64,000 nt of DNA from Candidatus Cloacimonadota bacterium (GCA_963676615.1 OY781092.1:129413-193412); one strand, 5' to 3'. Counted from the stretch's first letter, positions 39,198-60,918 are shown. Made by a program: numbers and translations. The notes: generated by a model from the letters alone, not told the origin.

Positions 39198-39213
39198 TTT
39201 TTTAGAAAAAAGT

Positions 39214-39290: not shown

Positions 39291-39311
39291 TTTTTTTCTC
39301 TAGCGGCTTTT

Positions 39312-40088: not shown

Positions 40089-42554
40089 ATGAGAAAAGTT
40101 TTTGCCAGCTTTTTAATCGTTTTGGGGTGCTTAAATTTTGCGTTTGCGCAAACTACCACGCCAGAGTCGGCGCTTTTGTTGCCGGGCAAACAGATGAGTT
40201 CTGTGGGAAATTCGGTCAACATCTCGATGGCGAGCGACTCGATTTCCTACATTGCAAACGATATGTTTTACGATGTCGTTTTTTCGCAGGCAAATCTTTA
40301 TGGCGATGTGCAGATTACTTCGGGCAGCTCGATTTTGCGCTCGGACACGATTACGATCAATTTGCAAAGCAACATAATGAGCTCGCACGGCGTCACTTAT
40401 ATCAAAGATCAAAACAGCTGTATGATTGGGCACGATGTTTGGGTGAATCCCAAAAAAGAGTGGGCGCTGTTCCTCAAGGGTGCCGGCAAAATCGATGTTG
40501 GCTACTATTACGGCAGCCAGGTGCGGCAGGTAAAGAACGGCGTTTACGATATCGATAACGGGATGTTCACCACTTGCGATGCGCCCGATCATCATTTTGA
40601 TATCTATTCCACGCAAATGCGGATCTATCGCGGACAGATGGTGGTGATGAAGCCGGTGGTGATTTTGGTGAACCACTTCCCGATTTTTGCGCTGCCCTCA
40701 TACTCTTTTTCGATTGCGCGCGGCAAGCAAAACGGCTTTTTGATGCCGACTCCGGGGCGGAACTCTACCGACGGAAAATATCTGGAAAATATCGGCTACT
40801 ACCTTTATTTCGAAGATTACTGGGACGGCATCATCAAGATGAATATCCGCGAAAATACGGGCATTGACGGCGAATTTCACACGCAATACAAAAAGCGCTA
40901 CGAGTTTGAGGGGCATTTGGACATTAGCCAAAAAAGGACGCTCAGCGATGCGGGAACTGCCTCGAAATACGAGGGCGAGTATCATTTTGAGCACGACCAA
41001 AATTTTGACGACGGCGCAACGCTCTATGCTGACGCAAACTACTATTCCAGCAAAGAGCTTTTGGAGGAGTCTAGCGATATCAACACTCGCACCAAAGAAA
41101 AAATCGACTCGAAAATAAATTACAGTCGCCCATTTTTGAGCAGCATTCTGAATGTTAACGGCAAATATACTCACGATTTGCAAACCGAGGCGAAGACGAT
41201 AACTTTGCCCGAAGTCTCTTATACGCTGACTTCTCGACCAGTTTGGGAGGTTTTTCAGGATGTTGCGCCGACGGACGATCCGTGGTGGGAAGATTTCAGC
41301 TACGCCTTTCGATTTAACGCCGTGCAAAAAGGGGTGATCAACGACTCTTCGTCCAGTTTTGCCGATGTGGTCTGGGAGTCCAAACGCGACACCAGCGGCG
41401 ATATGATAAATTCGCACTCGGCTGGCACACGGCAAGAGCTGGACTTTTCGTATTCCCACAAATTTTGGAATTGGCTGACATTTAGCCAAAGCGTGCCGCT
41501 GAAATTTGCCTATTCGAGTTCGGAAATTAACTACGAGAAATTCAAATCTTCGCACCAATACAGCTACTCAAACGACTTGGGTTTCGATATTGTCGGCTTC
41601 CGCAATTTTGGCGATTTCTACCTGAAAGGAATTCGCCACACAATCGGCATCTCGACCAGCTTTGACTATACGCCAGAGATAAAAAACACCGCCACAGGTG
41701 ATTACGCGCTTGGTGCAACTAGCGAGAGCAAAGCTTCCAAGCTGAATTTTAGCAACACTTGGGACTTGAAACTTAATCCTCCTGGCAAAACGGATAAGCT
41801 CTTGCTGAACAGCATTTTAACGGCAAAAACTGCCTACAATTTGTATAACGACGACACAGAGATTGAGGGCACCTGGGACGATATTATTTGGACAGGCAAA
41901 TTGGACGGACAAAAGCTGATACCTGCGGCAACTTTTGTGAATAAGGCGCTGGAATGGACTTATCTTTCCAAATGGTTGTCGTATTCGCTGACCAACCAAA
42001 ACACCGCTTCGGCGACTCAAGACCCCTACAATTTTGAGCTGGAAGAGTGGGAGTATAAGGTGCCGCTGAACAACTCGCTGAAGTTTAGTTTTTCGCAATC
42101 CAAGAAAATCCGCTATTTCAACTATTCGCCCGCAAAATACAATATGTTTGAGCTGAACAAGTTTTTTAACAACGGGCCGCCAGCTAAACGGCATAACTAT
42201 CTGTTGCAGGACAACAGCATCAGCACGGGCATCAGCTATACGCACAACATCGTCGGGCAGCAGGCAAAAGGCACGGGCTATCACAAAACGATTGACTACA
42301 CGCTGGATATGACTTGCGGGGCAAAAATTTTCTTGTCCAAAACTTGGCATTTGGAGTATTCCAACTCGATCGACCTCAAGGAGCGGGACCTGGTGAAGCA
42401 GACTTTTTCGGCGGTTAAACACCTGCACTGCTGGGATTTCACCTTTTCGTATATCAAAGAGGGCTCGTTTTGGGAGTATAAATTTTTGTTCTTTAACATC
42501 AAGTTGCCTAACGACCTGAAGCACGAGGAAGAGGGCGATTCCAACGATGACTAA
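40089..42554 (+). CDS. lptD: LPS-assembly outer-membrane protein LptD
   Basis: Signal peptide. OstA-like N-domain with GDVQITSGSSILRSDTI. Conserved FTTCD...P.YSFSIARGKQNGFLMPTPG region. 821-aa barrel-sized protein. Confidence 0.7.
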   Translation: MRKVFASFLIVLGCLNFAFAQTTTPESALLLPGKQMSSVGNSVNISMASDSISYIANDMFYDVVFSQANLYGDVQITSGSSILRSDTITINLQSNIMSSHGVTYIKDQNSCMIGHDVWVNPKKEWALFLKGAGKIDVGYYYGSQVRQVKNGVYDIDNGMFTTCDAPDHHFDIYSTQMRIYRGQMVVMKPVVILVNHFPIFALPSYSFSIARGKQNGFLMPTPGRNSTDGKYLENIGYYLYFEDYWDGIIKMNIRENTGIDGEFHTQYKKRYEFEGHLDISQKRTLSDAGTASKYEGEYHFEHDQNFDDGATLYADANYYSSKELLEESSDINTRTKEKIDSKINYSRPFLSSILNVNGKYTHDLQTEAKTITLPEVSYTLTSRPVWEVFQDVAPTDDPWWEDFSYAFRFNAVQKGVINDSSSSFADVVWESKRDTSGDMINSHSAGTRQELDFSYSHKFWNWLTFSQSVPLKFAYSSSEINYEKFKSSHQYSYSNDLGFDIVGFRNFGDFYLKGIRHTIGISTSFDYTPEIKNTATGDYALGATSESKASKLNFSNTWDLKLNPPGKTDKLLLNSILTAKTAYNLYNDDTEIEGTWDDIIWTGKLDGQKLIPAATFVNKALEWTYLSKWLSYSLTNQNTASATQDPYNFELEEWEYKVPLNNSLKFSFSQSKKIRYFNYSPAKYNMFELNKFFNNGPPAKRHNYLLQDNSISTGISYTHNIVGQQAKGTGYHKTIDYTLDMTCGAKIFLSKTWHLEYSNSIDLKERDLVKQTFSAVKHLHCWDFTFSYIKEGSFWEYKFLFFNIKLPNDLKHEEEGDSNDD

Positions 42555-43134
42555 AGCGGTTTTTTTGGACAGAGACGGCACGCTAAATCCAGATGAGCGG
42601 GGGTATATCGCCTCGCCAGAAGATTTTGAGCTGTATCCGTTTAGTGCTGCGGCGGTGAAAATTTTTGCCGATTTGGGCTTCAAAGTTTTTGTGATAACCA
42701 ACCAGTCGGGCATAGCGCGCGGACTGTATAGTGCAGCAGATTTGCAGGCGGTGCATAGCAAAATGCTCGCGCAGTTGCAGCAAGGCGGAGCGACGCTTGA
42801 CGAAGTTTTGCACTGTCCGCATCATCCGCAAGGCACAGTGCCGCAATTGAGTGTGAAGTGTCAGTGTCGCAAGCCGGGAAATCTCTTTTTTCGGCAGTTG
42901 CAAAAAAAATATTCTCTGCGAGCTAGGGCGTCTTTTATGATTGGAGACAAGGCGTCGGACATTGGTTTTGGCAAAAATAGCGGCTTGCAAACTATCTTGG
43001 TGCGCACTGGCGAGGGCGAGCAGACTTTTCGTGCGGGTAATGCAAACCCCGATTTTGTCGTGGACGATTTGCTGGCAGCGGCGAAGCTCATCAAACGATT
43101 GAGTGCGCAAGAAGCGGGCGATTATGCCAGATAG
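42547..43134 (+). CDS. gmhB: D,D-heptose 1,7-bisphosphate phosphatase (HAD, histidinol-phosphatase-like)
   Basis: AVFLDRDGTLN HAD motif I. CPHHPQG...C.CRKP zinc-binding loop typical of GmhB. Confidence 0.7.
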   Translation: MTKAVFLDRDGTLNPDERGYIASPEDFELYPFSAAAVKIFADLGFKVFVITNQSGIARGLYSAADLQAVHSKMLAQLQQGGATLDEVLHCPHHPQGTVPQLSVKCQCRKPGNLFFRQLQKKYSLRARASFMIGDKASDIGFGKNSGLQTILVRTGEGEQTFRAGNANPDFVVDDLLAAAKLIKRLSAQEAGDYAR

Positions 43135-43780
43135 GAAGCCGCCGTCCGCTTTCGATTTCGAGAAAATTTTTGCCGTTTTGGCGGAATATTACGCAAATTG
43201 TGAGGCTGCGGTCAAAAAATTTGAGCAGGTATCGGCAGCCACGCCGCTTCAGATTTTGATTGCGGCGATGCTCTCGGCTCGCACGAACGACCGCACGACG
43301 ACGAAAGTGATGAGCGACTGGGGGATAGAGCGGCTGGAGCAGCTGCAGGGGCTGTCGGCGCAGGAGCTGGAGAAAATCGTCTATCCAGTGGGATTCTACA
43401 AGCAAAAGGCACTGCACTTGAGCAAATGGTGTGAGCATATCGAAAAACATTTTGGCGGCAAATTACCCACAAATCGCCAGCAGACGATGAGTTTGCCCGG
43501 TGTGGGGCTAAAGACCGCAAATCTTTATCTTTCTCGGGCGTATGGCTTGCCGTTTGTTTGCGTGGATATTCATGTGCATCGGATTTGCGGGCGGCTTGGA
43601 CTGACTTCGTATAAAACTCCACAGCAGACAGAAAAAGAGCTGAGTCGAATTTTGCCCAAGAAGTTTATCAGCGACGCTAATCGTTATTTTGTCGCTCTGG
43701 GGCAAACTTTGTGCAAAGCTCAAAAAACCGACTGCGAAAATTGTCCTCTGAGCGAATTTTGCGCGAGAATAGGAGTGTAA
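43124..43780 (+). CDS. nth: endonuclease III (HhH-GPD glycosylase with 4Fe-4S loop)
   Basis: LPGVGLKTANLYL...VCVDIHVHRI (Lys/Asp catalytic pair conserved). C-terminal Cx6Cx2Cx5C cluster. Confidence 0.7.
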   Translation: MPDRKPPSAFDFEKIFAVLAEYYANCEAAVKKFEQVSAATPLQILIAAMLSARTNDRTTTKVMSDWGIERLEQLQGLSAQELEKIVYPVGFYKQKALHLSKWCEHIEKHFGGKLPTNRQQTMSLPGVGLKTANLYLSRAYGLPFVCVDIHVHRICGRLGLTSYKTPQQTEKELSRILPKKFISDANRYFVALGQTLCKAQKTDCENCPLSEFCARIGV

Positions 43781-44566
43781 ATGGTTGGAATTTTGGTATT
43801 TTATGGGGAAAATCGAAAAGTGCTATTGAAGGCGATTTGCCAAAATTTGGAAAAAAGCAAAGAGCGATATTTGAACTCAGAAAATCATAGAGAGTTGCAA
43901 CAAAAAATTGTGCAGGTGGAGCAAAAGCCTTTTCCGACGCTGCTTGAGGCGCTGGTGCATTTTAAAAGCTTGCCCGAAGGGGAGGTCAAGCAGTTTGCGC
44001 AGTATCGCTATCTTTGTTTGGATTGTGAGGGCGTGCCGTGTTTGTCTTCTGCCAGCGACACTTTGGCGGCGAGCAAAGATTTTGTGGGACCGTTTCGCAA
44101 TCTTTTTTTTATTTCCGATTTTACCGATAAGTTCGCCCAGCGCTACGATTTGCCTGCGTTGAGCCAAGAGCGGATGTGCGAAAATATTTTGGATTTTTAT
44201 CTGGACGAAAAAGTTTGGCAGGAGTGCAAAAACGAGCTGGACGATCTAGAAAATCGGCTGGATTTTGCCAAAGCGGAAATTCTTGCGCAAGATTTGCAGC
44301 CGTTGCGGCGATATTTCGAGTATTTGCAGTTTATTCGCACTAGTAAAAATCTTTGCTTCTCTTGCTCTTGGCAAGGAGCAGATTTGCAGGTGAAAGACGG
44401 ACTTTTACAAAAGTTTGGCGATTTGCGTTTTCGGCTGGATTATCGCCCGATGGAGTATCAAAAAAGCGAGCAAAACGCTTTGCCGCTGGACGAGCTGGAT
44501 GAGCGGGAGATTGTGTATCGCTTTTGGCAGGAGTTGGGCGAGCAGAGTGCTCATTTGCGAAGTTAA
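43781..44566 (+). CDS. hypothetical protein
   Basis: 261-aa ORF with no recognised motif. Tightly follows nth. Confidence 0.3.
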   Translation: MVGILVFYGENRKVLLKAICQNLEKSKERYLNSENHRELQQKIVQVEQKPFPTLLEALVHFKSLPEGEVKQFAQYRYLCLDCEGVPCLSSASDTLAASKDFVGPFRNLFFISDFTDKFAQRYDLPALSQERMCENILDFYLDEKVWQECKNELDDLENRLDFAKAEILAQDLQPLRRYFEYLQFIRTSKNLCFSCSWQGADLQVKDGLLQKFGDLRFRLDYRPMEYQKSEQNALPLDELDEREIVYRFWQELGEQSAHLRS

Positions 44567-44581
44567 TATTTTTCGTTTTCT

Positions 44582-45010
44582 TCATTCGTATGCGACTAAA
44601 TTTATATTTAAAGTCTCGCTGCGGTAAGTTTTTAGGGAGTCGCTGCTAATATCAATATTTTCCGTTTTATAGTCAGCTTTGAAGATAGAGAGTTGGTAGC
44701 TGGGCGCGATTTTGGCGAGCACTTTGTTGACGGCAGCTTGCAGAATAACAACGCTGGTGTCGTTGATGCCGCCAGCGACGATGGTTAGCTCTGCGTCGGT
44801 CGGTTGTCCGACAGAGTCTCGGACGCAAATATAAAACTGGTTGCTTGAGGTCGTGTCGATGATGATGTCGGTCTCTGGTGGGATTTTGTCTTCTTCGTCT
44901 TCTTCGGGAGCAGGCGCTGTGGTCGTTCCGCCGCCGCTGCTACCCCCGCCGCAAGCGCAAAAGCCGATTATGATTGCCAGCATTAGTAGTAGCTTGATGA
45001 ATTTTTTCAC
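44582..45010 (-). CDS. small lipoprotein
   Basis: Signal plus lipobox (IIGFCAC) followed by a Gly/Ser/Thr-rich linker. Immediately downstream of, and co-directional with, the giant repeat gene. Confidence 0.5.
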   Translation of the reverse strand: MKKFIKLLLMLAIIIGFCACGGGSSGGGTTTAPAPEEDEEDKIPPETDIIIDTTSSNQFYICVRDSVGQPTDAELTIVAGGINDTSVVILQAAVNKVLAKIAPSYQLSIFKADYKTENIDISSDSLKTYRSETLNINLVAYE

Positions 45011-45034
45011 TGTGTTCTCCTCAAAAAAACTTTT

Positions 45035-48000
45035 TTAATTTTGATCATAGTTTGGTAACCAGTCTGGGTCTGGCACATAGTCTTCGTATTTTTGAAATTC
45101 GAGGTATGGATCGAAGTCTGCGGGGTCTGCGCTGAAGCGTGGTTTGTAGTTTTCTTGCCAGGCTGGCGTGTTTTCTTGATACCACGAATAGTTGCCGCCT
45201 ACGCTGACGAGTTTTGCTGTCCAGGTGTTCAAAGGTTGGTTAAACGACTGTGCGCCCTGGAACATACAGAACATATCGTCGACATTGGTGACATCCCAAT
45301 TGTCCAAAGGTTGGTTGAAAGATTTGGCTTTGTAGAACATTGCCCTTGCCCTTTTTAGTTCGGAGACATTCCACTTGTCCAGTGGCTGATTGAAGGCGTA
45401 TGCTCGCAAAAATACTGTGCTCATTTTTGTGACATGCTGCACATCCCAGTCGTTGATGTTTTGGTTAAACGAAAAAGCACGGCGGAAGGCACTGTCCATT
45501 CTATCAAACCAATCGTCTTTATTTCTAGTTTCGTTATAGCGGGTGTTGAATTTCCAGCTGTTAATCGGCTGATTGAAGCGAAAAGCGCCCCAAAACATTC
45601 CGTAAATCGTTGTGACGCTGCCCATATCCCATTTGTCGAGTGGTTGGTTAAATTCGTATGCGTCGCAAAAAGTCGATGCCATTTTTTTTACATTGCCCAC
45701 ATCCCAGTTGTTGATGTTTTGGTTGAACACTTCTGCGTGGTAGAATGTGTAGGTCATATCGGTGACATTGCTCACATCCCAATAGCTGATGTCTTGGTTA
45801 AAGGAGGAATTTGGAGAAGAGACGCCCTCGCATTCGGTTGGGTGATCTTCCCAGTATTCTTGGGCGTCGGGGATTAGGTTTCTCAAGCTTGTGATTTGGC
45901 TGGTGTTGACATAGCGGACATCTTCGCCTTTGGCAATTTTTTTGATAAGTTCATCGAAGGTAATCGGCGGCACGAGCGCTCTTGGTTTTTCCTGAACTCC
46001 CCAATCGCTGCGAGTTATGTAGTCGAAATCGGCGAGGTTTGCATCTTGGGAAATATCCCAGTTTATCAGATTTTGTCGGAAAGAAGAGGCGCCATGGAAC
46101 ATACTTCTGGCGGTGGTAACGCTGCTGACATTCCATCTAGTGATGTCTTGGTCGAACTTTCTGGCTTCATCGAACATATACTCCATATCGGTAACGCTGC
46201 TGACATCCCAGTTGCCGATGTAGCCATTAAAAGGGGTGCCCTTGAACATATAGCCCATCGATGTGACTTTGCTGACATCCCAAGAGGGAACATCGCCGTT
46301 GAAGTTGTAGGCGCCGTTGAACATTGCTCGCATATTCGTCACTTTGCTCACATTCCAGCTGTCGAGATTTTGGTTGAAGCTTTGCGCGCCAGCGAACATC
46401 TGGCTCATGCTGGTGACATTGCCGACATTCCAGCCATTTAGGGGTTGATTGAAAGATTTTGCGTAGGCGAACATTCCGTCCATATTGGTGACATTGCTCA
46501 CATCCCAGCTGATGACATCGGGGTCGTTGAAGTTTTGCACGGTCTGGCAGCTGAGGATAGTTTCCCCTTTTGCATCAGCGACAGCTTGCATCAGCCCAGA
46601 CATATCGCCAGCGAGCTTTAAGCCCGCTAAATCCATGCCAGCGACGATTTTTGCCACAAGTTCTTGTTTGCTTATCGGGAATTTTGGTCTTTCGAGCGCT
46701 GTCCAATTGGTGTTTTCTTCGCTAGCGAAATAGTCGAAATTTTGGATCTTGTCTACATTCCAGCGGCTGATATCTTGGTCAAAATTATAGGCTCCCACAA
46801 ATGTTCGTTCCATATTGATGGCGTTTGCTGTGTTCCAGCCTCCGATAGAGGATGAGCCGCCGTTGTTAAAAGCTGTGGCGCCAGCGAACATCCTGTTCAT
46901 ATCTGTTACATATGCCATATTCCAGCTGCCGATATCTTGGTTGAATTTGGTCGCTTCGGAGAACATTCCGCTGGTGTTGATCGGTGCGACATTTTTCCAG
47001 TTGCCGATTTCTCTGTTAAAACTAGAGGCTCCTCCGAACATATAGCGCATATTCCTGACATTTGCGACATCCCAGCCGCTGATATCTTGGTTGAATGCTC
47101 TGGCTTTATAGAACATAGATTCCATATCCGTAACATTGCTGACATTCCATTCACCGATTTCTTGGTTAAAATTGAACACCGGAGGGCAATCGTCTGCCGA
47201 GTATGTTGTGCCATGAATTTCGTTATATTTTTGAGTTACTTTGCTCATCAGAAAAGACATATCGGTGATGAATTGGACATCCGCCAGCGCAACATCGACA
47301 TTGTCTGCGATTAGTTCGATGAGTTTGTCGAGGGTGACGGGGAATTTGGGCATCTCGCTGAGTTTCCATTCATAGTTATGATCCCAAGAACAAAAACCGC
47401 CAAATTGTTTGATTTCGCCTCTTTGGGTAAACGCAGTTAGAGCGTCGGATGACCAGGCGGTGAGGTCTTGGTCGAAAACGGTGTTGTCGGCAAACATCAT
47501 AGTCAGGTCGGTTACCTGATCTATATCCCAATCGCTGATGTCTTGGTTAAAGTTGGTTTCCCTAAACATATAGCTCATATCTGTCACCAAACCAGTGTTC
47601 CAGTCTCCGATTGGTCTGTCAAAGGCGGTGGCTCCTTCAAACATATACGACATATCCGTGGCGTTAAAATTCCAAGTGTTGTTGCTTGTGTTGGCGTTTA
47701 TATCTTGGTTAAAAGATTTGGCGTTTCTGAACATTGCGCTGAGGTTTTTGACGCTTTGCAAGTTCCAAGTCCCGATGGCTTGGTTAAAGCTCTCTGCGCC
47801 GTCGAACATATGGCTCATATCGGTGACTTGGCTGGTTTTTTGTCCCCAATTGCCGATGTTTCCGTTGAATTTTTTCGCACCAGCGAACATCCCTTTCATA
47901 TTGGTAACGCCGCTGACATTCCAGCCGCCCAGCGGTTGGTCGAAGATGGTGTCGCTCTCGAACATATAGCTCATATCGGTTACATTTGCGACATTCCAGC

Positions 48001-51000
48001 TGCCGATGGGTTGGTTGAACGAGTTTGCGCCTGCGAACATCCTGCTCATATTGGTGACGCCGCTGACATCCCAGCCGCTGATATTTTGGTTGAAACTTTT
48101 CACACTTTGGCTGGAGCGGCTTGCGACCAGATCCATAAGGTTAGACATATCGGTTATTTGTGACACATCAACATTGGTGACATCGTTGCCAGCAGCGATC
48201 ATCAGCACGAGGTCGCTTTTTGAGACTGGTAGATTTGGTCGGTTGGAAAATTCCCATTTTGAGGCGTTCAGGGCGTAGTCTTGGCTTTTGGTGACTTTGC
48301 CGATATCCCAGCCGCTGAGGTCTTGGTTAAACGAGATGGCGTTGTAGAGCATCGAGTCCATTTTGGTGACATTTGCGATATTCCAGTTGCTGATGTTTTG
48401 GTTGAAATCTTTCACTGTTTGACAATCGTCGATATCTTCTTGCAGGTAGTCGGCAACCTCTTGCATCAGGTCGGACAAATCGGTGATGCTGCTGACATCC
48501 AGATTTGTGACATCTTTGCCGAGGGCGATTTGGCGAGCCAGAGCGTGCTTGGTGTTTATCGGGAAGCTGGGCTTTTCGCTCGCGAGCCAGCTGTCTTTTG
48601 TGCCAGAATCGAAAAAGTTGAAATCGGTAACTGCGCCGACATTCCATCTGCTGAGGTCGCGACCGAAGTTGCTGGCACTATAGAACATTGCCCGCATATC
48701 TTCGACTCTGTCAACTTCCCAGTCCTTGATGTTGTCGTCGAAGGCGGTCGCCCCATAAAACATCGAGTTCATATTGGTAACCGAATCGACATCCCAGTCG
48801 CCGATGTATTTGGAAAAACTCGTGGCGTTTTTGAACATCGACGCCATAGTGGTGACATCGCTGACATCCCAGTCGCTGATGTCTTGGTTGAAGGCTATGG
48901 CACCCTCGAACATCGAATCCATAGTGTAAACATTGCCAGTTTTTGCGTTCCAGTCGCCGATATCGCCGTTGAACTTTGCTGCGCCCTTAAACATTCCGTC
49001 CATACGACGAACTGTGCTAACATTCCAGCTGCCGATATCTTGGTTGAAATTTTCTGCGTCGCCGAACATATATTGCATAAAATAAGCTTTGCCGACATTC
49101 CAGTCGCTGATGTTTTGGTTGAAGGCTGTGGCTTTATAGAACATCTCGCTCATATTATAAACTTGGCTGACATCCCAGCTGCTGATATCTTGGTTGAATT
49201 TTCCTGCCTCAAGAAACATCCCGCTCATTTCTCTGACTTTGCCAGTTTTTGCTCCCCATAGACCCACATTACCGTTGAAGTTGTCCGCTAGCGAGAACAT
49301 ACCGTTCATATTGGTGACTTGGCTGACATCCCAGCCGCCGATGTTTTGGTTGAAACTTTCGGCATTATCGAACATATAGCTCATATTAGTAACGCTGTCC
49401 ACTGACCAGCCGCCGATATTTTGGTTGAAGGAAGTGGCGTTTTGGAACATATGGTGCATATCTTTTACTCGGCTCACATCCCATTGGCTGATGTCTTGGT
49501 TGAAGCTTTGCACGACAGGGCACTCTTTTGGATTGTCGTAGTCCAGAGCGCTCGCGACTTGAGTCATCAGATTCGACATATCGGTGATTTGCGAAACATT
49601 GGCACTGGATACATCTCGTTGGTTGGCTATCAGGAGCACCAAGTTCTCCTTGGTCAGGGGGTAGCCCGCCAGTGCTGGTTTTTCGAGGATTGTCCACTGG
49701 CTGGAAGTCCCCGCGTCGAACTCGTCGATGGCTGTCACATTCCCGACGCTCCAGCCGCTGAGGTCTTTGTCAAAACCGCTGGCGCCCTTAAACATCCCGC
49801 TCATATCGGTAACATTTTCGACATTCCAGCCTCTAATATCTTGGTCGAAATTTTTAACGATGGAACAGGAACTCAAATTTTCGCCCAGAGAATCGGCAAC
49901 GGCTTGCATAAGGTTCGACATATCAGTGATTTGCGAAACATTGACTTTGGTAACATCTTTACCTTTTGAGATGAGCAGGACGAGATCCGCTTTGCGCAGC
50001 GGCAGATTTTTTAGGTTCGGCTTCTCCAAAATCGTCCAGTTTGTGCTGCTTGCGGTGTCAAAATTGTCGTAATTTTTCACAGAATCTATCACCCAGCCGC
50101 TGAGGTCTTGGTCGAAGTTGCTAGCGCCAGAGAACATCCCGCTCATATCGGAGACGCTGCTCACATCCCAGCCGCTGATATCTTGGTTGAGCGAAGACGC
50201 CCCTTGGAACATCTCTGTCATTTTGGAAACTTTTTCGACATTCCAGCCGCTGATATCTTGGTTGAAATTTTGCACGACGCTTTGGCTAGAGAGGCTAGCG
50301 ACGGCCTCCATCAAATAGGAAAAATCTCCCGTGAGCTTTACATTGCTCACATCCTCGTCATTTGCGATCATCTGGGCGAGCTGTTGTTTGCCAATCGGAA
50401 ATTGCGGTTTTTCATCTGCGAGCCAGCTTGCGTTGCTGTTGCTGTCAAAATCGTTGAACTCGGTAACTTTGTCGATATTCCAGCCGCTGATATTTTGGTC
50501 GAAAGCGCTTGCTCTCGCGAACATACTGCTCATATTCGCAACTCGGCTCGTTTTCCAGCCGCTGATATCTTGATTGAACAGACTCGCATCCTCGAACATC
50601 CCGCTCATATTAACGACGCTGTCAACATTCCAGCCGCCGATGTTTTGGTTGAACGAGCTTGCCCCTTTGAACATTCTGCTCATATCGGTGACTTGGCTCG
50701 TTGTCCAGCCGCTGATGTCCCGATTAAACGAGCTGGCGCCCTCGAACATCCCGCTCATATTTTTGATGTTGCTCACATCCCAGCCGCTGATATCTTGGTT
50801 GAAATTTTGCACAGCCGGGCAATTTTCGGGGCTGTCCGTTCCCGAAATTCTGGCAACATCTTGCATAAGGTCGGGCAGATAGTCGATATACGCAAGGCTC
50901 ACATAAGTGACATCTTCGCCGTTGGCAATCATTTGCGCCAATTTGTGGCGATTTAGGTGGAATTTTGGCTTTTGGGCGATAGTCCACTCGGGCGAACTTC

Positions 51001-53098
51001 CATCTGCAAATTTAAAGAAATTCGTAACCGTTTCTGTGTTCCAGCCGCTCAAATTTTGCGCAAAACTCGTCGCACCCGCAAACATCTGGCTCATATCGGT
51101 AACTTTTTCGATGTCCCAGCCGCTGATGTCTTGGTTGAAAGCGCTCGCATTTTCGAACATCCCGCTCATATTAGTAGCGCTGCTCGTTGTCCAGCCGCTG
51201 ATGTTGGCGTTGAAACTCGTTGCCCCCGCGAACATCCTGCTCATATAGCTCACATTGCCGACGCTCCAGCTGCTAAGGTCTTGGGCAAAATTTGCAGCAT
51301 CTTGGAAAATTCCAGACATATCGCCGACACTGCTTACAGACCAGCCGCCGATGTCTTGGTTGAAGGCGCTTGCCCCTTTGAACATTCTGCTCATATTGGT
51401 GACTTGGCTCGTTGTCCAGCCGCTAAGGTCTTGATTAAACGAGCTGGCGCCCTCAAACATCCCGCTCATATTGGTAACATTCTCGACATTCCAGTCGCTG
51501 ATATCTTGGTTGAAATTTTGCACGGTGTCCGCATTTGAAAAGTCGGTGACGATACTCATCAAGCCCGACATATCGGTGATTTGGCTGATGTTGGCGCTAG
51601 TCACATCCCTGCCGCTAGCGATCAAGAGCGCTAGGTCTTCTCTGCTCAGGGCGTAGTTGTCAAACTTTGGCTTCTCATCCAAAGTCCAGCTGGGGGAATG
51701 CCCGCTAGCAAAATCGCTGTGGTCGCTGATTTGGCTGACATTCCAGCCGCTAATATCTTGATCAAAAGCGCTTGCCCCCGCAAACATCTGGCTCATATTC
51801 GTAACATTGTTTGTCGTCCAACCGCCGATATTTTGGTTGAAAGCGCTCGCATCTTTGAACATCCCGCTCATATTTGTAACTTTGCCGACTTGCCAGTCTC
51901 TGATGTTGCCATTGAACTTTTTTGCCCCCTCGAACATTTGGCTCATATCGGTAACATTGCCCACATTCCATCCGTCGAGGTCTTGGTTGAAATTTGCGGC
52001 GTTTTTGAACATCCCACTCATATTGGTGACTTGGCTGGTTGTCCAGTCGCTAAGGTCTTGATTAAACGAGCTGGCACCCTCGAACATACCGCTCATATTG
52101 GTGGCGCCGCTCACATCCCAGCCGCTGATATCTTGGTTGAAATTTTGCACGATGGAGCAGGAGCTTAACTCCTCTCCCAAAGCATCGGCTACCGCTTGCA
52201 TCAAGCCCGACATATCGCTGATTTGGCTGACATTCGCACCAGCAACATTTTCGCCATTTGCAATCGCACTTACCAAATTTTCTTTGCTGAGAGGGTCGGA
52301 ATTTTTCATCAACTTAATTTCCCACGGAGTTGAATTGTAAGCCTGCAGCTCGCTCTTGGTTTTGGCGAAATTTTTACTGTCATAGCCCGCTTTGCTGACC
52401 GTAATGGTGTAGTTTTCTTGCTCTTCCAGCAAAATTTTTGTCGCTTTGGGTTTTATCAAAATCGTGTCGGCGCTGCTTTCTTCCTTAAAATTTGCAGAAG
52501 TGCCAGTCCATACACCATTGTCGTTTAAGATTTTCGCCTCGATGTAAAAGACAACCAAAGAGCCCTCATAAGTGAAATCCGCAAAGCCAAAATCTTGCGG
52601 ATCTGTGTCGGATTCTACCTCAACGACTTTTAGAGCTAGCTGATTTTCGCCTTCGTTTACCTTAAATTTATACGGCAACGACGAGGGAATTTTTAGGGTT
52701 TTATCGACAAAACTTTCGCTCTTGGGAACGGCAAAAATTGTGAGCCCAGTCGCGTTCAGCAGCTCAAATCTTGTGATTTCGTAGTCGCCGATGTCCAGAG
52801 TCAGCAAATTTGTGAGCGGGATTTTGACAGAAAATTCGGTAGTGTCGTTTTTCTTTCGATATTTAAGGGCTATTTTTGTGGCTGTTTGGGTGTCGCCAGA
52901 GCTTAGATTGACGCTTTGTCCAGTGGAGCTAAGTCTTTCCAAGCTAAAGTATACTTCGCCCTGTTTGTCTTCATTAACAGTTGGAGAATCGTCTTCGTTT
53001 TGGTTGCCGTCGAGGTCGTCCAAAATTTTGTCGAAACACGAAAAAAGCACCAAAATCATCGCCAAAAAAGCAACAAGCTTGACTCTTCTAAAATTCAT
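45035..53098 (-). CDS. giant (2687 aa) secreted/lipo-protein built from >60 DUF285/BspA-like repeats
   Basis: Signal peptide with possible lipobox (LFSC). About 11 modules, each starting with a ~50-aa intro (…LVLLIA.G.DVT.ANVSQITDMS.LM..VA…) followed by 5-8 copies of a ~23-aa unit F.GA.SFNQDIS.WDVS.VT.MS.MF, the DUF285 (Mycoplasma-lipoprotein type) repeat. Confidence 0.75.
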   Translation of the reverse strand: MNFRRVKLVAFLAMILVLFSCFDKILDDLDGNQNEDDSPTVNEDKQGEVYFSLERLSSTGQSVNLSSGDTQTATKIALKYRKKNDTTEFSVKIPLTNLLTLDIGDYEITRFELLNATGLTIFAVPKSESFVDKTLKIPSSLPYKFKVNEGENQLALKVVEVESDTDPQDFGFADFTYEGSLVVFYIEAKILNDNGVWTGTSANFKEESSADTILIKPKATKILLEEQENYTITVSKAGYDSKNFAKTKSELQAYNSTPWEIKLMKNSDPLSKENLVSAIANGENVAGANVSQISDMSGLMQAVADALGEELSSCSIVQNFNQDISGWDVSGATNMSGMFEGASSFNQDLSDWTTSQVTNMSGMFKNAANFNQDLDGWNVGNVTDMSQMFEGAKKFNGNIRDWQVGKVTNMSGMFKDASAFNQNIGGWTTNNVTNMSQMFAGASAFDQDISGWNVSQISDHSDFASGHSPSWTLDEKPKFDNYALSREDLALLIASGRDVTSANISQITDMSGLMSIVTDFSNADTVQNFNQDISDWNVENVTNMSGMFEGASSFNQDLSGWTTSQVTNMSRMFKGASAFNQDIGGWSVSSVGDMSGIFQDAANFAQDLSSWSVGNVSYMSRMFAGATSFNANISGWTTSSATNMSGMFENASAFNQDISGWDIEKVTDMSQMFAGATSFAQNLSGWNTETVTNFFKFADGSSPEWTIAQKPKFHLNRHKLAQMIANGEDVTYVSLAYIDYLPDLMQDVARISGTDSPENCPAVQNFNQDISGWDVSNIKNMSGMFEGASSFNRDISGWTTSQVTDMSRMFKGASSFNQNIGGWNVDSVVNMSGMFEDASLFNQDISGWKTSRVANMSSMFARASAFDQNISGWNIDKVTEFNDFDSNSNASWLADEKPQFPIGKQQLAQMIANDEDVSNVKLTGDFSYLMEAVASLSSQSVVQNFNQDISGWNVEKVSKMTEMFQGASSLNQDISGWDVSSVSDMSGMFSGASNFDQDLSGWVIDSVKNYDNFDTASSTNWTILEKPNLKNLPLRKADLVLLISKGKDVTKVNVSQITDMSNLMQAVADSLGENLSSCSIVKNFDQDIRGWNVENVTDMSGMFKGASGFDKDLSGWSVGNVTAIDEFDAGTSSQWTILEKPALAGYPLTKENLVLLIANQRDVSSANVSQITDMSNLMTQVASALDYDNPKECPVVQSFNQDISQWDVSRVKDMHHMFQNATSFNQNIGGWSVDSVTNMSYMFDNAESFNQNIGGWDVSQVTNMNGMFSLADNFNGNVGLWGAKTGKVREMSGMFLEAGKFNQDISSWDVSQVYNMSEMFYKATAFNQNISDWNVGKAYFMQYMFGDAENFNQDIGSWNVSTVRRMDGMFKGAAKFNGDIGDWNAKTGNVYTMDSMFEGAIAFNQDISDWDVSDVTTMASMFKNATSFSKYIGDWDVDSVTNMNSMFYGATAFDDNIKDWEVDRVEDMRAMFYSASNFGRDLSRWNVGAVTDFNFFDSGTKDSWLASEKPSFPINTKHALARQIALGKDVTNLDVSSITDLSDLMQEVADYLQEDIDDCQTVKDFNQNISNWNIANVTKMDSMLYNAISFNQDLSGWDIGKVTKSQDYALNASKWEFSNRPNLPVSKSDLVLMIAAGNDVTNVDVSQITDMSNLMDLVASRSSQSVKSFNQNISGWDVSGVTNMSRMFAGANSFNQPIGSWNVANVTDMSYMFESDTIFDQPLGGWNVSGVTNMKGMFAGAKKFNGNIGNWGQKTSQVTDMSHMFDGAESFNQAIGTWNLQSVKNLSAMFRNAKSFNQDINANTSNNTWNFNATDMSYMFEGATAFDRPIGDWNTGLVTDMSYMFRETNFNQDISDWDIDQVTDLTMMFADNTVFDQDLTAWSSDALTAFTQRGEIKQFGGFCSWDHNYEWKLSEMPKFPVTLDKLIELIADNVDVALADVQFITDMSFLMSKVTQKYNEIHGTTYSADDCPPVFNFNQEIGEWNVSNVTDMESMFYKARAFNQDISGWDVANVRNMRYMFGGASSFNREIGNWKNVAPINTSGMFSEATKFNQDIGSWNMAYVTDMNRMFAGATAFNNGGSSSIGGWNTANAINMERTFVGAYNFDQDISRWNVDKIQNFDYFASEENTNWTALERPKFPISKQELVAKIVAGMDLAGLKLAGDMSGLMQAVADAKGETILSCQTVQNFNDPDVISWDVSNVTNMDGMFAYAKSFNQPLNGWNVGNVTSMSQMFAGAQSFNQNLDSWNVSKVTNMRAMFNGAYNFNGDVPSWDVSKVTSMGYMFKGTPFNGYIGNWDVSSVTDMEYMFDEARKFDQDITRWNVSSVTTARSMFHGASSFRQNLINWDISQDANLADFDYITRSDWGVQEKPRALVPPITFDELIKKIAKGEDVRYVNTSQITSLRNLIPDAQEYWEDHPTECEGVSSPNSSFNQDISYWDVSNVTDMTYTFYHAEVFNQNINNWDVGNVKKMASTFCDAYEFNQPLDKWDMGSVTTIYGMFWGAFRFNQPINSWKFNTRYNETRNKDDWFDRMDSAFRRAFSFNQNINDWDVQHVTKMSTVFLRAYAFNQPLDKWNVSELKRARAMFYKAKSFNQPLDNWDVTNVDDMFCMFQGAQSFNQPLNTWTAKLVSVGGNYSWYQENTPAWQENYKPRFSADPADFDPYLEFQKYEDYVPDPDWLPNYDQN
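45300..52300. repeat. intragenic tandem DNA repeats within the giant gene
   Basis: 60-80-nt stretches recur with >90% identity, e.g. around 50700-50770, 51410-51480 and 52030-52100 (ccagccgct..gtc..gattaaacgagctggcgccctcgaacatcccgctcatatt...). The many plus-strand ORFs in this span are repeat artefacts. Confidence 0.7.
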
Positions 53099-53250
53099 AA
53101 AAAACTTCCTTTTTTTGTAAAGATTAACAACTATCTTCCGTATGTTGATGCTACAGTATATGCAAAGGAATTGTCAAACAATTTTTGGATTTTTTTGGGA
53201 GTTGTGATTTGCTGTAAATCTTGATTTGTCAACAGGTTAAAGCCTTTTCG

Positions 53251-54774
53251 CTATTTGCGCTCTTTCACAACTCTAAGCCCATAAGTTTTGCTAGTGTCGC
53301 TTGGAGCAGCAGACTGGAGAAATTCAATTGCGATGTATGTGCTGTCGGCTTGATAGCTCCCGCCTTTCATAGCTCTGTCTCCAGTTGTTTCATCTTTTTC
53401 GTCAAAACACCATTCCCACAGGTTCCCGCTCATATCGTAAACGCCCAACTGATTTGTTGTCCGTGATTTTACGGTGTGGCAAGAGTCCTGGCTGTTTGAG
53501 CTAAACCAAGCAACCTTTTCAAAAGCGTTGATGTTTCCAGCTAAAGCTCCGCTTGCCCAGTATAAATTGGTGCATTCTCCGTTGTTTCGCAGCAAAATTT
53601 GGTCAGACTTTTTGTCTTCGATGAACATCGCCGCAAGATTCCACTCGGAAACGGTTGGCAGTCTGAATCCAGTTGCGTTTTCGTCTAAAACCAACTGGTC
53701 TTCGTCAAAAGATGTCGGATTTTTAATGACGGCATCGCCATTTTTTTTGTAGTAGCAAGTGTAGTTTGGCGTTGGTGAAACCTGGGAGTTGCAATATTCG
53801 GTCAAAGCGTTGCAAAAGATAATCGCCTCTTTCCAAGAAATTTTACTAATCGGATGGTTGTCCGAGATTGCAGTTGGATCGTCAGAGAAAGAGTAGCCGT
53901 TTGATTCTGCCCAAGTGGTTACATCGTCCCAAACTTTTTTGGTTATTTCGGTTTGAGCAATCCAAAAAGCTGTTTTAACGCTGTCATCTCCAGAAGGATG
54001 AGCAGGAAATTGCTTTATTTTGGGAACAAAATTCATTATCATATCGGCGTTGCCCAAAAAGTCAACTTGATCTCCTGGTGCAAAATCTATTTCAATTTTT
54101 ATGGAATCTTTCAGTCCGCTTCTGGCAACGCCTGCGGGAGTAGCTCGTATGTAGGTTGAGCCCGTGTCGTTTGCTGTGACTAAGCCAAAATCGTTGACGC
54201 TGGCGATATTGGCGTTGTCAGAAATCCAAGTGACGCCAGAATCGACATAGATATCTGGGCTGAAGTAAGCTTTTAATTGGCTGGTCTGTCCTTTTGCTAT
54301 CTGAACAGAGGTGGAATCTAGCCAAAATCCCACAATCTCAAAGTAGCAAACAAGTATCATCGAAGCGCTTACTTGTTTGTCTTCCAATGTGATTGCTTTT
54401 GCGGTAATCTCGGAAGATCCAGCCCTTTTTGCCACGATAGTTCGCTGAAAATCGTTGTCGTCAATAAATTCGGCAATATTTGGGTTGGAGATGCTCCAGA
54501 CGATGTTTTTTTCCAAAGCGTCGCTGGGCGAGTATGATAGGGTAACGGTTGTGGTGTCAAATTCTTTAGCTTCTGGAGGCGATGTATTTTCGATAGGGAT
54601 AAGATAAATTTTTATTTGCTTTTGAGTAAAAAAAATGTCGTCGAGATCAAAATTTTGTTCTGAGGTGCTATTGGGAGAATAAAGACAACCGCCGAGGCTG
54701 GCGGCGATAGCGGCGACGAACAAAAAGAGTCTAAATTTCATTTTTCTTTTTTTTACTCCATATATTACGAACAA
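53251..54774 (-). CDS. lipoprotein with Ig-like (Big_2-type) domains and a C-terminal formylglycine-generating-enzyme (FGE/sulfatase-modifying) fold domain
   Basis: Lipobox LGGC. The C-terminal ~280 aa carries FGE-type motifs (NHPISKISWKEAIIFCNALT ... GVYDMSGNLWEWCFDE ... RVVKER). Confidence 0.65.
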   Translation of the reverse strand: MFVIYGVKKRKMKFRLFLFVAAIAASLGGCLYSPNSTSEQNFDLDDIFFTQKQIKIYLIPIENTSPPEAKEFDTTTVTLSYSPSDALEKNIVWSISNPNIAEFIDDNDFQRTIVAKRAGSSEITAKAITLEDKQVSASMILVCYFEIVGFWLDSTSVQIAKGQTSQLKAYFSPDIYVDSGVTWISDNANIASVNDFGLVTANDTGSTYIRATPAGVARSGLKDSIKIEIDFAPGDQVDFLGNADMIMNFVPKIKQFPAHPSGDDSVKTAFWIAQTEITKKVWDDVTTWAESNGYSFSDDPTAISDNHPISKISWKEAIIFCNALTEYCNSQVSPTPNYTCYYKKNGDAVIKNPTSFDEDQLVLDENATGFRLPTVSEWNLAAMFIEDKKSDQILLRNNGECTNLYWASGALAGNINAFEKVAWFSSNSQDSCHTVKSRTTNQLGVYDMSGNLWEWCFDEKDETTGDRAMKGGSYQADSTYIAIEFLQSAAPSDTSKTYGLRVVKERK

Positions 54775-54929
54775 AATAATCTTTGTTTTTTTTTAAGTGA
54801 AATCGAAAATGTTAATAAATTGTCAAGAATTAAAGAGATAAAAGCCAAATTTAGAAAAAAGATTTGACAAATAATGAGTGTAAATCCGATTTAGGGAATA
54901 TAAAAAATGAGGAAACAGACGAGGGAAAA

Positions 54930-55823
54930 ATGCTAAAGAACAAACTATTTCTATTTATTGGGTTTATGGTGGTTTTGCAGATTTTGGTGTCTTGGGTAGG
55001 TTTGGGCTCAGATTTGAACATTGGCACGAACCCGGCAACGGGGAAGTTTGCGGTGTGGAATTCGCCGAACGACAACTCGATCCAAAAGCAGATTTTGACC
55101 GAGTTTCAGCCAGATCAATACCTAGCGGAAAATGGCGGCACTGGCGAAATCTTGGGCAGCGCCGCTCTCTACGGTTTTTTTGCTAAATTCACCGCTTCGC
55201 CTTTGGGCACATCCAAACTTCTGTTTATGATTTTGGTCGTCGATTTGCTTCTTTTGGCTGGAGCGATTTTTGTCGCCAAAACCGCGAGCTTTATCCCTGG
55301 TAAATGGCAATTGTTGTGGGAAAATATCTACAATTTTTTTGCGGAACTCGTGGGCGACTCGCTGGGTAAAGACCGTCTGAACTTTTTGCCATACATCGCC
55401 ACGATTTTTCTTTTTATTCTAATGAGCAACATTTTGGGCGTTGTGCCTGGACTCTCCGAGCCAACCAGAAACCTGAATGTGCCGCTGGGAATGGGCATCG
55501 TCGCCAATGTCGTGGTGCACTTTATGATGATAAAAGTCAAGGGCGCTTGGGGCTATATGAAAGGCTACGCTGAGCCGATGTTTTTCCTAACGCCGCTGAA
55601 TGTTTTGGGCGAAGCATCAAAGCTGGTGTCGATTTCGTTCCGTTTGTTCGGCAACATTTTGGGCGGCTCGATTATCTGCGTTGTGATCTCCAACTTGACC
55701 AAATTTATCGTTTTCCCGATGTTTCTTTCGGGATTTTTTGGAATATTTATCGGCATTATTCAAGCGTTTGTGTTTACAATGCTCTCGCTTTCGTATCTAA
55801 GTGCTGGAATAGTAGAGGAATAA
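54930..55823 (+). CDS. atpB: F-type ATP synthase subunit a
   Basis: Conserved Arg in ISFRLFGNILGG. Five or six TM helices. RBS GAGGGA ahead of the ATG at 54930. The track ORF's 22-codon extension is probably not translated. Confidence 0.8.
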   Translation: MLKNKLFLFIGFMVVLQILVSWVGLGSDLNIGTNPATGKFAVWNSPNDNSIQKQILTEFQPDQYLAENGGTGEILGSAALYGFFAKFTASPLGTSKLLFMILVVDLLLLAGAIFVAKTASFIPGKWQLLWENIYNFFAELVGDSLGKDRLNFLPYIATIFLFILMSNILGVVPGLSEPTRNLNVPLGMGIVANVVVHFMMIKVKGAWGYMKGYAEPMFFLTPLNVLGEASKLVSISFRLFGNILGGSIICVVISNLTKFIVFPMFLSGFFGIFIGIIQAFVFTMLSLSYLSAGIVEE

Positions 55824-55826
55824 CAA

Positions 55827-56576
55827 ATGATAGACCCAGGAATAATTCGGATTGCGGCGTATATCTCTGCTGGCATCGCTGTGGGAACGGCATCTTTGGC
55901 AACGGGCATCGGCTCGGGCTATATCGCTGGTGGAGCCGTGGAGTCGATGGAGCGGCAACCACTTATTAGCGACAAACTTTTCCGCAGTATGCTCATCGGG
56001 CAAGCCGCCACAGGAACAGGAGCGATTTTGTCGTTGGTGATAGGGCTTTTGCTACTTTTTGGCGGATTTGATAATCCCGCAGGTGGCTGGTTCCGAGTCG
56101 CTTCACTTTTGGGAGCTGGCATCGCTATCGGTCTTGGCGCAATCGGCTCTGGCTATGGTGCAGGCGCTGCTGGTGGACAGGCGTGCGTAGCAATGGGGCG
56201 TGTCCCCGACAAAAACGCAACCCTTTTGGGTAATATGCTCATCGGGCAGGCGCTTAGCCAGTCGGTGACGATTTACGCACTGCTGATTTCGCTGATGCTG
56301 CTTTACTCCACGCCGCTGCAGCCTAGCGGTTTGGACACGGGCTCGATTGTGATGAAGTCGGTGGCTTTGGTTGCTTCGGGAATATGCATCGGATTTGGGA
56401 GCATCGGCTCTGGCATCGGAATTGGCGAGCTAGCGGGCAAATCGAATATGAGCATCGCCAAAGTGAGCAAAGGCGAAATGGGCGTGATGCGGGTGATGTT
56501 TATCGGTTCGGCAGTTACGCAATCGACGGCGGTTTATGCTTTGATTGTCTCGTTTTTGCTGATGTTTATAGTTTAA
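55827..56576 (+). CDS. triplicated c-subunit-like protein: three helical hairpins, none with the ion-binding carboxylate
   Basis: Three GxGxGxG helix-1 motifs (GIGSGYIAGGAV, GAIGSGYGAGAAGG, GSIGSGIGIGELAG), each followed by an RxP-type loop and a helix 2. At the position aligning with the E of atpE (AVSESTGIY), the three repeats have G, Q, Q (AATGTGAIL, ALSQSVTIY, AVTQSTAVY). Confidence 0.7.
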   Translation: MIDPGIIRIAAYISAGIAVGTASLATGIGSGYIAGGAVESMERQPLISDKLFRSMLIGQAATGTGAILSLVIGLLLLFGGFDNPAGGWFRVASLLGAGIAIGLGAIGSGYGAGAAGGQACVAMGRVPDKNATLLGNMLIGQALSQSVTIYALLISLMLLYSTPLQPSGLDTGSIVMKSVALVASGICIGFGSIGSGIGIGELAGKSNMSIAKVSKGEMGVMRVMFIGSAVTQSTAVYALIVSFLLMFIV

Positions 56577-56629
56577 ATAAAAAAGAAAATAAAAAAAGTT
56601 CTTAATTTTTAAGAGTTAGGAGGAAAGTT

Positions 56630-56872
56630 ATGGATATGACATTGATTGTTAAGGCGGCATCGCTGCTAGGAGCGGGCATTTGTATGGGTCTTGGTGCTAT
56701 CGGACCGGGAGTCGGAGAGGGTTTTGTGGGCGGAAAAGCTTGCGAGGGTATCGCCAGAAGCCCCGAGCATGCAGGGCTTATCACCAGAACTATGCTTGTT
56801 GGACAGGCTGTGTCGGAGTCAACTGGTATCTACTCGCTGGTTATTGCGCTTCTTTTGATGTTCTCTGTGTAG
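56630..56872 (+). CDS. atpE: ATP synthase subunit c with Na+-binding-type motif
   Basis: 80 aa. [19 protein letters not shown] is near-identical to the Na+-binding helix 2 of the Ilyobacter c-subunit (ESTxxY). Glu also present in helix 1 (GVGEGF), as in the two-carboxylate Fusobacterium type. Strong RBS AGGAGG. Confidence 0.85.
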
Positions 56873-56935
56873 TGACTTTTTTTGGATTACGAAAAAAAGT
56901 TTGATAACTAAAGATTTTAAAAGGAGTCGTATCTT

Positions 56936-57412: not shown

Positions 57413-57416
57413 GACT

Positions 57417-57944: not shown

Positions 57945-57954
57945 GAGTTAATGG

Positions 57955-59454: not shown

Positions 59455-59495
59455 TCATTTTTGCTAAATTAAAAGAAGCAAAAATTCTTTTTTGA

Positions 59496-59570: not shown

Positions 59571-59595
59571 TTTTTTTATTTATGAGGTTTGATTT

Positions 59596-60902: not shown

Positions 60903-60918
60903 TGAAAAAATATTGTGA

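Follow-up and report, generated by a model that had tools for sequence, protein, structure and literature searches.

Proteins built from tandem copies of a 25-residue amphipathic unit (W-D-V-S-x-V-T-x-M-S-x-M-F-x-x-A-x-x-F-N-Q-D-I-S-x) are known from mycoplasmas as PARCEL repeat proteins (PF03382/TIGR02167), with LppQ and Mbov_0838 as examples. The mycoplasma proteins contain 5-20 units, and dyad symmetry of the encoding DNA is the source of the name (Roske et al. 2010, PMC2996958). Deletion of a DUF285 protein lowers the adhesion of Lactococcus lactis (PMC5071367), and a DUF285 lipoprotein of Mycoplasma bovis binds beta-actin (PMC8707762). This study concerns a 64,000-nucleotide (nt) stretch of DNA from a Candidatus Cloacimonadota bacterium (GCA_963676615.1 OY781092.1:129413-193412), hereafter the window, in which one gene encodes a giant DUF285 protein of 2687 amino acids (aa). 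The analysis revealed a lipoprotein in which a two-domain stalk precedes eleven modules of DUF285 units, encoded at a chromosomal site whose content differs between related genomes. The locus is probably the form that a variable island of surface lipoproteins takes in this species, and the giant protein probably acts as a lipid-anchored multivalent adhesin or ligand-binding protein on the cell surface.

Like the PARCEL proteins, the giant protein carries the same 25-residue amphipathic unit in tandem, with each unit having its own sequence, begins with an N-terminal lipoprotein signal and has no assigned function. It differs from the mycoplasma proteins in belonging to a diderm member of Cloacimonadota, in having about 67 units arranged in 11 capped modules, and in placing a beta-sandwich stalk ahead of the repeats. 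Its gene is found in no mobile-element context and bears no compositional sign of recent transfer. Amphipathic helices were predicted for the unit in 2010 (PMC2996958), whereas AlphaFold2 (AF2) modelling in this study yields a solenoid resembling leucine-rich repeats (LRRs). The palindromy that characterises PARCEL DNA was not detectable in this gene, which at k = 10, 12 and 14 shares as many k-mers with its own reverse complement as do its synonymous-codon and codon shuffles; this k-mer test of dyad symmetry is a different method from the MEME-type search for degenerate palindromes of the original paper.

A second group for comparison comprises the giants named 'BspA family leucine-rich repeat surface protein' by NCBI PGAP, which are alike in size (2000-4700 aa), in the blocks of units and in presumed cell-surface location. 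With the whole giant protein as a query, more than 4100 matches were obtained at E <= 1e-10 among 8000 candidates scored. Among the 120 matches listed, 119 are other proteins of 1650-4700 aa, from Bacteroidota, archaea, prasinophyte algae and other sources, and one is a fragment (P0004) derived from a chimeric contig. The 119 giants contain 38-76 units, counted with the same regular expression, in blocks of 1-18 parted by spacers. Many such giants possess PKD or immunoglobulin (Ig) domains and a type IX secretion system (T9SS) tail, PF18962; the window protein has neither, and relies instead on an N-terminal lipid and a stalk. The C-cap and N-cap that separate its blocks of units make up short spacers of about 55 residues, and their motifs are found only in its own clade, with three or more such caps present in 0 of the 119 giants. 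BspA of Tannerella has LRR_5 repeats, which Pfam did not detect in the window protein (PF13306, E <= 0.01). The label 'BspA-like' given by the original prediction, an earlier reading of this DNA, is thus correct in NCBI's loose naming sense, whereas Pfam recognises DUF285 only.

The lipoprotein BT_0210 of Bacteroides thetaiotaomicron (PDB 4ecn) follows the same plan, with an N-terminal beta-sandwich stalk followed by a solenoid passenger. It differs in having about 12% sequence identity to the window protein, in carrying classical LRRs rather than DUF285 units, and in possessing one solenoid instead of eleven.

Architecture of the giant lipoprotein

The three genes of the original prediction are present, co-oriented on the minus strand. 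Their features are as follows, with positions counted from the first nucleotide of the window:

44582-45010, minus strand: small lipoprotein open reading frame (ORF), 142 aa, separated by 24 nt from the giant gene, on its downstream side; paralogous to the second beta-sandwich of the stalk alone
45035-53098, minus strand: giant ORF, 2687 aa, 8064 nt uninterrupted
53036-53098, minus strand: N-terminal signal peptide of the giant protein with its lipobox, MNFRRVKLVAFLAMILVLFS followed by C (Cys21), from the translation
52310-53035, minus strand: acidic disordered tether (~aa 22-45) and two-beta-sandwich stalk (~aa 46-160 and 181-263), from the AF2 model
45134-52294, minus strand: eleven DUF285 solenoid modules, aa 269-2655, from unit and module parsing
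51662-52294, minus strand: module M1
50960-51661, minus strand: module M2
50399-50959, minus strand: module M3
50012-50398, minus strand: module M4
49667-50011, minus strand: module M5
48563-49666, minus strand: module M6
48230-48562, minus strand: module M7
47342-48229, minus strand: module M8
46679-47341, minus strand: module M9
45977-46678, minus strand: module M10
45134-45976, minus strand: module M11
50188-52122, minus strand: most self-similar stretch (modules M1-M4), with a 42-nt exact repeat and most of the windows at >=90% identity; unbridged by a k-mer assembler
45035-45133, minus strand: C-terminal tail of the giant protein, 32 residues, acidic and aromatic (SADPADFDPYLEFQKYEDYVPDPDWLPNYDQN), with the stop codon
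53099-53250, minus strand: intergenic region 5' of the giant gene, 152 nt
53251-54774, minus strand: third ORF; its start is placed at 54741 in the public gene call, for a product of 496 aa (53251-54741)
53251-54741, minus strand: FGE/Big_2 lipoprotein, 496 aa, lipobox LGGC with Cys19, Big_2 Ig-like and C-terminal FGE-sulfatase/C-type-lectin-like domain

All three proteins open with a signal peptide and a lipobox cysteine, read directly from the sequence. The giant DUF285 protein does lie between two lipoproteins, as had been claimed, and it is a lipoprotein itself, which the original prediction did not state. Its membrane-targeting signal is a signal peptide with the lipobox LFS/C at Cys21, again read directly. 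The residues just after the lipidated cysteine are acidic (C-FDKILDDLDGNQNE), which is compatible with the export signal of surface lipoproteins of Bacteroidota, and the tether sequence begins FDKILDDLDGNQNEDD. The host is a diderm, as LptD and MlaD are encoded in the left flank of the locus, and a Kdo transferase and a heptosyltransferase elsewhere in the window.

The stalk was modelled by AF2 with 28 homologues at a mean predicted local distance difference test (pLDDT) of 87.4, with strands at model residues 26-140 and 161-243 and a tether of about 20 initial residues having pLDDT below 50. Its best Foldseek match is the BT_0210 LRR lipoprotein 4ecn (E 2e-7), followed by stalk domains of Gram-positive pilins and adhesins and by transthyretin-like domains. 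In Pfam, only a sub-threshold match of DUF4458 to the first stalk domain was observed.

Profile searches confirmed that the repeat unit is DUF285, as proposed originally. The giant ORF matches Pfam DUF285 (PF03382) with E = 0 and 1907 bits (cut-off 25) in 23 stretches, and the NCBIfam PARCEL-repeat model TIGR02167 with 492 bits (cut-off 30) in 18 stretches. The 1203 bits obtained with NF045896 (Mbov_0838 family) are the sum of 24 partial stretches, of which the best spans only model positions 283-379, the repeat part, of 433, and a full-length match to this family was not found.

The eleven modules, M1 to M11, contain 6, 7, 5, 3, 2, 12, 2, 9, 6, 7 and 8 units, about 67 in total. The number of modules agrees with the earlier estimate of about 11, whereas the range of 2-12 units per module is wider than the 5-8 then given. 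Each module starts with two or three N-cap helices (L..LIA.G.DV...ITDMS.LM..VA), proceeds with the 25-residue units and terminates in a degenerate last unit or C-cap, 'W..EKP.F'. Among the 43 canonical units, positions F1, W8, V13, M16, M19, F20 and A23 are near-invariant, and the core positions have an entropy below 1 bit, compared with more than 2 bits at 13 other positions. No pair of these 43 units is identical; their amino-acid identity is 49% on average and 88% at most.

The AF2 model of module M2 (aa 480-716) has a pLDDT of 93.5, a predicted template modelling score of 0.89 and one beta bridge per unit. Its best fold matches in the PDB, although weak, are all LRR proteins, including the Nogo receptor, LGR4/5, VLR repebodies and TLRs, and the solved LRR_5 protein 4h09 is found at rank 41 with E 0.088.

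The original prediction hinted at type IX secretion and proposed examining the C-terminus for sorting signals. No T9SS or other sorting domain was found in the last 119 residues of the giant protein even at E <= 1 with NCBIfam, where only PARCEL-repeat models matched, and Pfam and NCBIfam scans of the whole protein returned no TIGR04183- or PF18962-type T9SS domain. The C-terminal tail showed no similarity to the proteins of the relatives.

A variable island upstream of the ATP synthase operon

The locus is flanked on both sides by core chromosomal genes. The left flank comprises tilS, an hpt-like gene, ftsH, an mlaD-like gene, lptD, and genes for an HAD hydrolase, an HhH-GPD glycosylase and a 261-aa ORF, and the right flank comprises the atp operon, hisF/IE and a gene for an SNF2 helicase. 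The GC content of the island (46.5%) resembles that of the window (45.3%), and no tRNA, integrase or mobile-element genes were present in the scanned flanks; recent horizontal transfer was rejected on these grounds.

The site between the 261-aa ORF and atpB was compared with that in the closest genomes, five complete ~1.55-Mb chromosomes of Cloacimonadota/Cloacimonadales metagenome-assembled genomes (L002-L006), whose AtpB proteins are 82-88% identical. The six genomes have six different contents at this site. It is empty in L002, and in L005 and L006 it holds an orthologue of the FGE lipoprotein alone (42-43% identity). In L003, where the synteny of the left flank is lost, a 1305-aa DUF285 lipoprotein is followed by two stalk-only lipoproteins, and in L004 there are DUF285 lipoproteins of 767, 551 and 679 aa together with a 544-aa protein that has the same stalk and a beta-helix-like passenger; both of these genomes lack the FGE gene here. 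The site upstream of atpB is therefore a variable island, and the three genes of the window do not form a fixed unit, since FGE occurs alone in L005 and L006, DUF285 genes occur without it in L003 and L004, and nothing is found in L002.

The proteins at the L003 and L004 sites share the stalk of the giant protein at 30-36% identity. In L004, a 689-nt tandem copy of a module is 96.7% identical to its neighbour, and L003 contains a module duplication of 609 nt at 87.5% identity. Module duplication does shape this gene family, which supports the original prediction in this respect. Two adjacent L004 genes, at 2967-4601 (+) and 4628-6283 (+), are 97.9% identical over an 840-nt 5' part encoding the signal peptide and stalk, after which their passengers are unrelated, one being a beta-helix-like domain and the other eight DUF285 units; the two illustrate a recent exchange of passengers on the stalk. 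The recent duplications in the relatives imply that duplication and domain swapping build such genes, and that the array of the window has diverged since.

When 1.84 billion representatives were searched in full with HMMER, the stalk proved to belong to a family of 226 clusters at E <= 1e-3. The stalk domain begins no further than about 125 residues from the N-terminus in nearly all of the 150 clusters listed, whose proteins are 133 to 1477 aa long. Of 148 relatives, 103 have a recognisable lipobox and, after it, a tether that is acidic and polar, and in the close relatives the fraction of D+E at positions +2 to +15 is 0.21, against 0.03 for K+R. The passengers carried by the family include Laminin_G_3, several LRR types, Fib_succ_major, DUF285, Lcl_C and Flg_new, as well as CBM96, C-type lectin, FG-GAP and beta-propellers, and at least one member is from Bacteroidota. 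Lipobox, acidic tether and stalk together form a unit of about 250 residues without a Pfam model above threshold. The stalk seems to be an all-purpose, lipid-anchored support on which binding domains are displayed.

The small lipoprotein downstream of the giant gene is related to this stalk. It aligns to columns 180-300 of the stalk alignment A1, matches the L003 protein L003_301 at 6.7e-6 in BLASTP, and is placed by a profile search among the stand-alone stalk lipoproteins. It is thus a paralogue of half of the stalk.

These observations suggest how the giant protein might operate. The island lies upstream of the ATP synthase operon in a clade of small-genome (~1.55 Mb) Cloacimonadota. The protein would be N-terminally lipidated in the diderm cell, and the flexible acidic tether and two-sandwich stalk would hold the eleven capped solenoids off the outer membrane. 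The core of the units would be made of the conserved hydrophobic positions, and the remaining positions would be free to vary, and therefore eleven different binding surfaces may be presented.

Some points weigh against an adhesin or ligand-binding protein on the cell surface. The only indications of surface exposure, as opposed to anchoring at the periplasmic face, are the acidic tether and the analogy with surface lipoproteins of Bacteroidota, and the binding function and its ligand are likewise presumed. For M2, the solved LRR proteins give weak match scores (best E 1.7e-3, TM ~0.35), and no PDB chain sharing sequence with DUF285 was found.

A structural role, with the giant protein serving as an envelope or S-layer-like spacer or as a component of a cell-cell aggregation matrix and not as a specific adhesin, appears improbable. 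The large, modular and rod-like repeat architecture would suit such a role, and the stalk-only lipoproteins beside the giant gene, here and in L003, could form a layer. However, the protein is species-specific, the empty site in one close relative argues against an essential structural role, and the freely varying surface positions of the units are expected of binding surfaces rather than of a lattice.

Divergence of the repeats and integrity of the gene

According to the original prediction, the giant gene is packed with near-identical DNA repeats, stretches of 60-80 nt recurring at more than 90% identity, and is consequently prone to recombinational expansion and contraction. A 75-nt periodicity of the gene is obvious, and its repeat families are 60-76% identical to their own reference copy. 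By BLAST, the best long self-match has 78% identity over 337 nt, exact repeats extend to 42 nt at most (50771/52109), and no high-scoring segment pair of at least 40 nt at >=90% identity was found within the gene. In an ungapped scan, windows of 60 nt at >=90% were found at 7 offsets and windows of 80 nt at this level at 3, all within 48.0-52.2 kb and mostly in M1-M4, and a few of the 60-80-nt windows have 90-95% identity. Short stretches of the kind described do therefore exist, but they are few, and the description of the gene as packed with near-identical repeats is wrong. Given modules of such age and divergence, little recombinational instability is to be expected today, contrary to the proneness that had been proposed. 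The many plus-strand ORFs inside the giant gene were considered separately and dismissed as a by-product of codon usage, with antisense stop counts matching those of codon-preserving shuffles and of other genes in the window.

It is consequently unlikely that the gene is a contingency locus, in which near-identical intragenic repeats drive frequent expansion and contraction and thereby size or antigenic variation. Such a locus would be in keeping with the duplicated modules of the relatives, and with the few 60-80-nt windows and the 42-nt exact repeat in the giant gene itself, but not with the divergence of its typical copies and best long pair, nor with the lack of exact unit repeats at the protein level. 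The predicted size variation between strains also failed to appear, as the 90% clusters of about 15 billion proteins contain no length variant and hold only the giant protein and a fragment from a chimeric contig, and the three assemblies or contigs available agree at 100% in all overlaps. No close relative or strain variant was found in scans of JGI metagenomes with the stalk and with AtpB, and a word-indexed search with the N-terminal 319 aa of the giant protein gave no match. It is proposed that whole modules were duplicated in tandem as the array grew and then diverged over a long time, and that the gene would now be stable and not actively size-variable.

The fragment in question, P0004 (1477 aa, of which 1402 aa are identical to the giant protein), was the only candidate for a shorter allele, and it is not real. 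It originates from the contig L010 (ctg16299_23x_l of ENA assembly ERZ25074360; 6190 bp, 23x, linear), which is a fold-back chimera of window positions 57167-57676 (+), 54075-48894 (-) and 48453-48952 (+), each 100% identical, with end pieces of about 500 bp each. The tail of P0004 is the plus-strand translation of 48456-48680. In protein databases, this false allele now represents the giant protein in the clusters at both 90% and 50%.

An error in gene length or module number, arising through collapsed or mis-joined repeats, is very unlikely. The ORF is open over 8064 nt, and the exact giant protein is encoded on a 1.57-Mb contig of the same ENA assembly, ctg24561_899x_c, with 899x coverage and circularity as read from the record name. 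Independently, contigs L017 and L019 of the Logan assembly of run ERR14749983 match window positions 34582-50187 and 52123-64000 without mismatch, reproducing 6129 of the 8064 nt of the giant gene (76%) at 100% identity. The Logan contigs end at 50187 and 52123, and the absence of a bridge over 50188-52122 is, together with the chimeric contig touching the giant gene, what could be held in favour of an artefact. The break occurs only across this interval, which is spanned by the 899x contig and covered at 100% identity by L010 (48894-54075) as the second contig of the source assembly. Over lengths above 300 nt, the repeats in this interval do not exceed 78% identity, and reads of a few hundred bases would place them uniquely. 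The earlier warning of assembly collapse was justified insofar as a k-mer assembler does fail inside the gene, but it breaks rather than collapses at the most self-similar 1.9 kb.

The upstream lipoprotein and the meaning of the locus

The third gene encodes an FGE-domain lipoprotein with Ig-like domains, as described originally, with Pfam matches to FGE-sulfatase (6.8e-26) and Big_2 (3.3e-13). It is the more conserved resident of the site. As it stands alone in two relatives and is absent beside other DUF285 genes, it is not functionally tied to the giant gene, and it is probably an independent and older resident of the island.

GldK, GldJ and PorK share the FGE fold, and the original prediction drew attention to this kinship. 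The FGE lipoprotein has in common with them, and with the variable protein 1 (TvpA) of Treponema denticola, an FGE-sulfatase/C-type-lectin-like fold and a lipoprotein signal. Unlike GldK and GldJ, it falls far under the family cut-offs, with 32.2 bits against 350 for GldK (TIGR03525), over 94 residues, and 26 bits against 458 for GldJ, and it has no gldKLMN/porKLMN context, its neighbours being atpB and the DUF285 gene. The suggested link to GldK/PorK is thus not upheld. There is accordingly very little prospect that the trio is a secretion or anchoring unit, with the FGE lipoprotein as a PorK/GldK-like ring component or as an enzyme modifying the giant protein. The genes are adjacent and co-oriented, and the shared fold and the weak NCBIfam matches point in that direction. 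On the other side stand these low scores, the lack of gldLMN neighbours, the giant protein's lack of a T9SS C-terminal domain, the separate occurrence of FGE and DUF285 genes in L003-L006, and the 152-nt gap with promoter-like sites between the FGE and giant genes.

Within this gap, a consensus scan located a promoter-like site, TTGACA-18-TAGCAT, at 53177-53148, although such matches are as frequent in shuffled sequences, and a Shine-Dalgarno-like AGGAAG was read directly 8 nt ahead of the ATG of the giant gene. An invertible promoter ahead of the giant gene was rejected, as flanking inverted repeats were not found.

The best solved relative of the FGE lipoprotein is TvpA (2y3c, E 1.1e-17), a diversity-generating retroelement (DGR) variable protein with the FGE-type C-type-lectin fold, but a hypervariable ligand-binding system with the FGE lipoprotein as a similar DGR target is highly improbable, since, unlike the case of TvpA, no DGR parts were found in the window: a template repeat is absent from its 64 kb (best off-target match 19 nt), and no reverse transcriptase occurs among the 33 window ORFs scanned with Pfam, a search that did not extend to 16 further window ORFs (111-466 aa) or to the remainder of the 1.57-Mb genome.

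Several other genes of the window were recorded. In the atp operon, three c-subunit hairpins are fused into one 249-aa protein (55827-56576, +), and an ordinary 80-aa c subunit is encoded after it (56630-56872, +). At the alignment column where the 80-aa subunit has its ion-binding Glu (SES), the three hairpins read G, Q and Q, and none of them therefore keeps a carboxylate. The 249-aa ORF is kept in all five Cloacimonadota relatives, and the fused protein recalls the hybrid c ring of Acetobacterium woodii. At 25842-27851 (+), a 669-aa protein matches the middle and C-terminal domains of FliG in its C-terminal half (84.6 bits; fliG cut-off 226.7); no other flagellar genes were found among the ORFs scanned, and a 382-aa ORF beside it has no Pfam match. 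A tyrosine-decarboxylase-type pyridoxal phosphate enzyme (618 aa) adjoins an amino-acid permease (477 aa) at 8550-11865 (-), and the two look like a decarboxylation/antiport pair. An 861-aa ORF at 3230-5815 (+), without a Pfam or NCBIfam match, is flanked by genes for an amino-acid permease/EIIA fusion and for lipopolysaccharide-core glycosyltransferases.

As a DUF285 protein, the giant lipoprotein adds little, as thousands of these exist, more than 100 are as large, and PGAP already names them. The record is corrected in that the gene is neither an array of near-identical repeats nor linked to T9SS. Its modules, with confident LRR-like models and clear N- and C-caps, are good targets for structure determination, DUF285 having no solved structure. 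A handle on the surface proteins that distinguish species of uncultured small-genome Cloacimonadota is provided by the common stalk and by the island of variable content ahead of atpB.

A wider interpretation is offered tentatively, namely that the conserved part of these proteins is the carrier and not the DUF285 array. The lipobox, tether and stalk might constitute a surface-display cassette of Cloacimonadota, with relatives in Bacteroidota, on which passengers such as DUF285 arrays, classical LRRs, lectins, carbohydrate-binding modules, beta-helices and propellers are swapped, with stand-alone stalk lipoproteins adjacent, in a fast-turnover island beside the atp operon that would give each species its own set. 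If this is true, the displayed set could decide the attachment to partners or substrates in these small-genome syntrophs.

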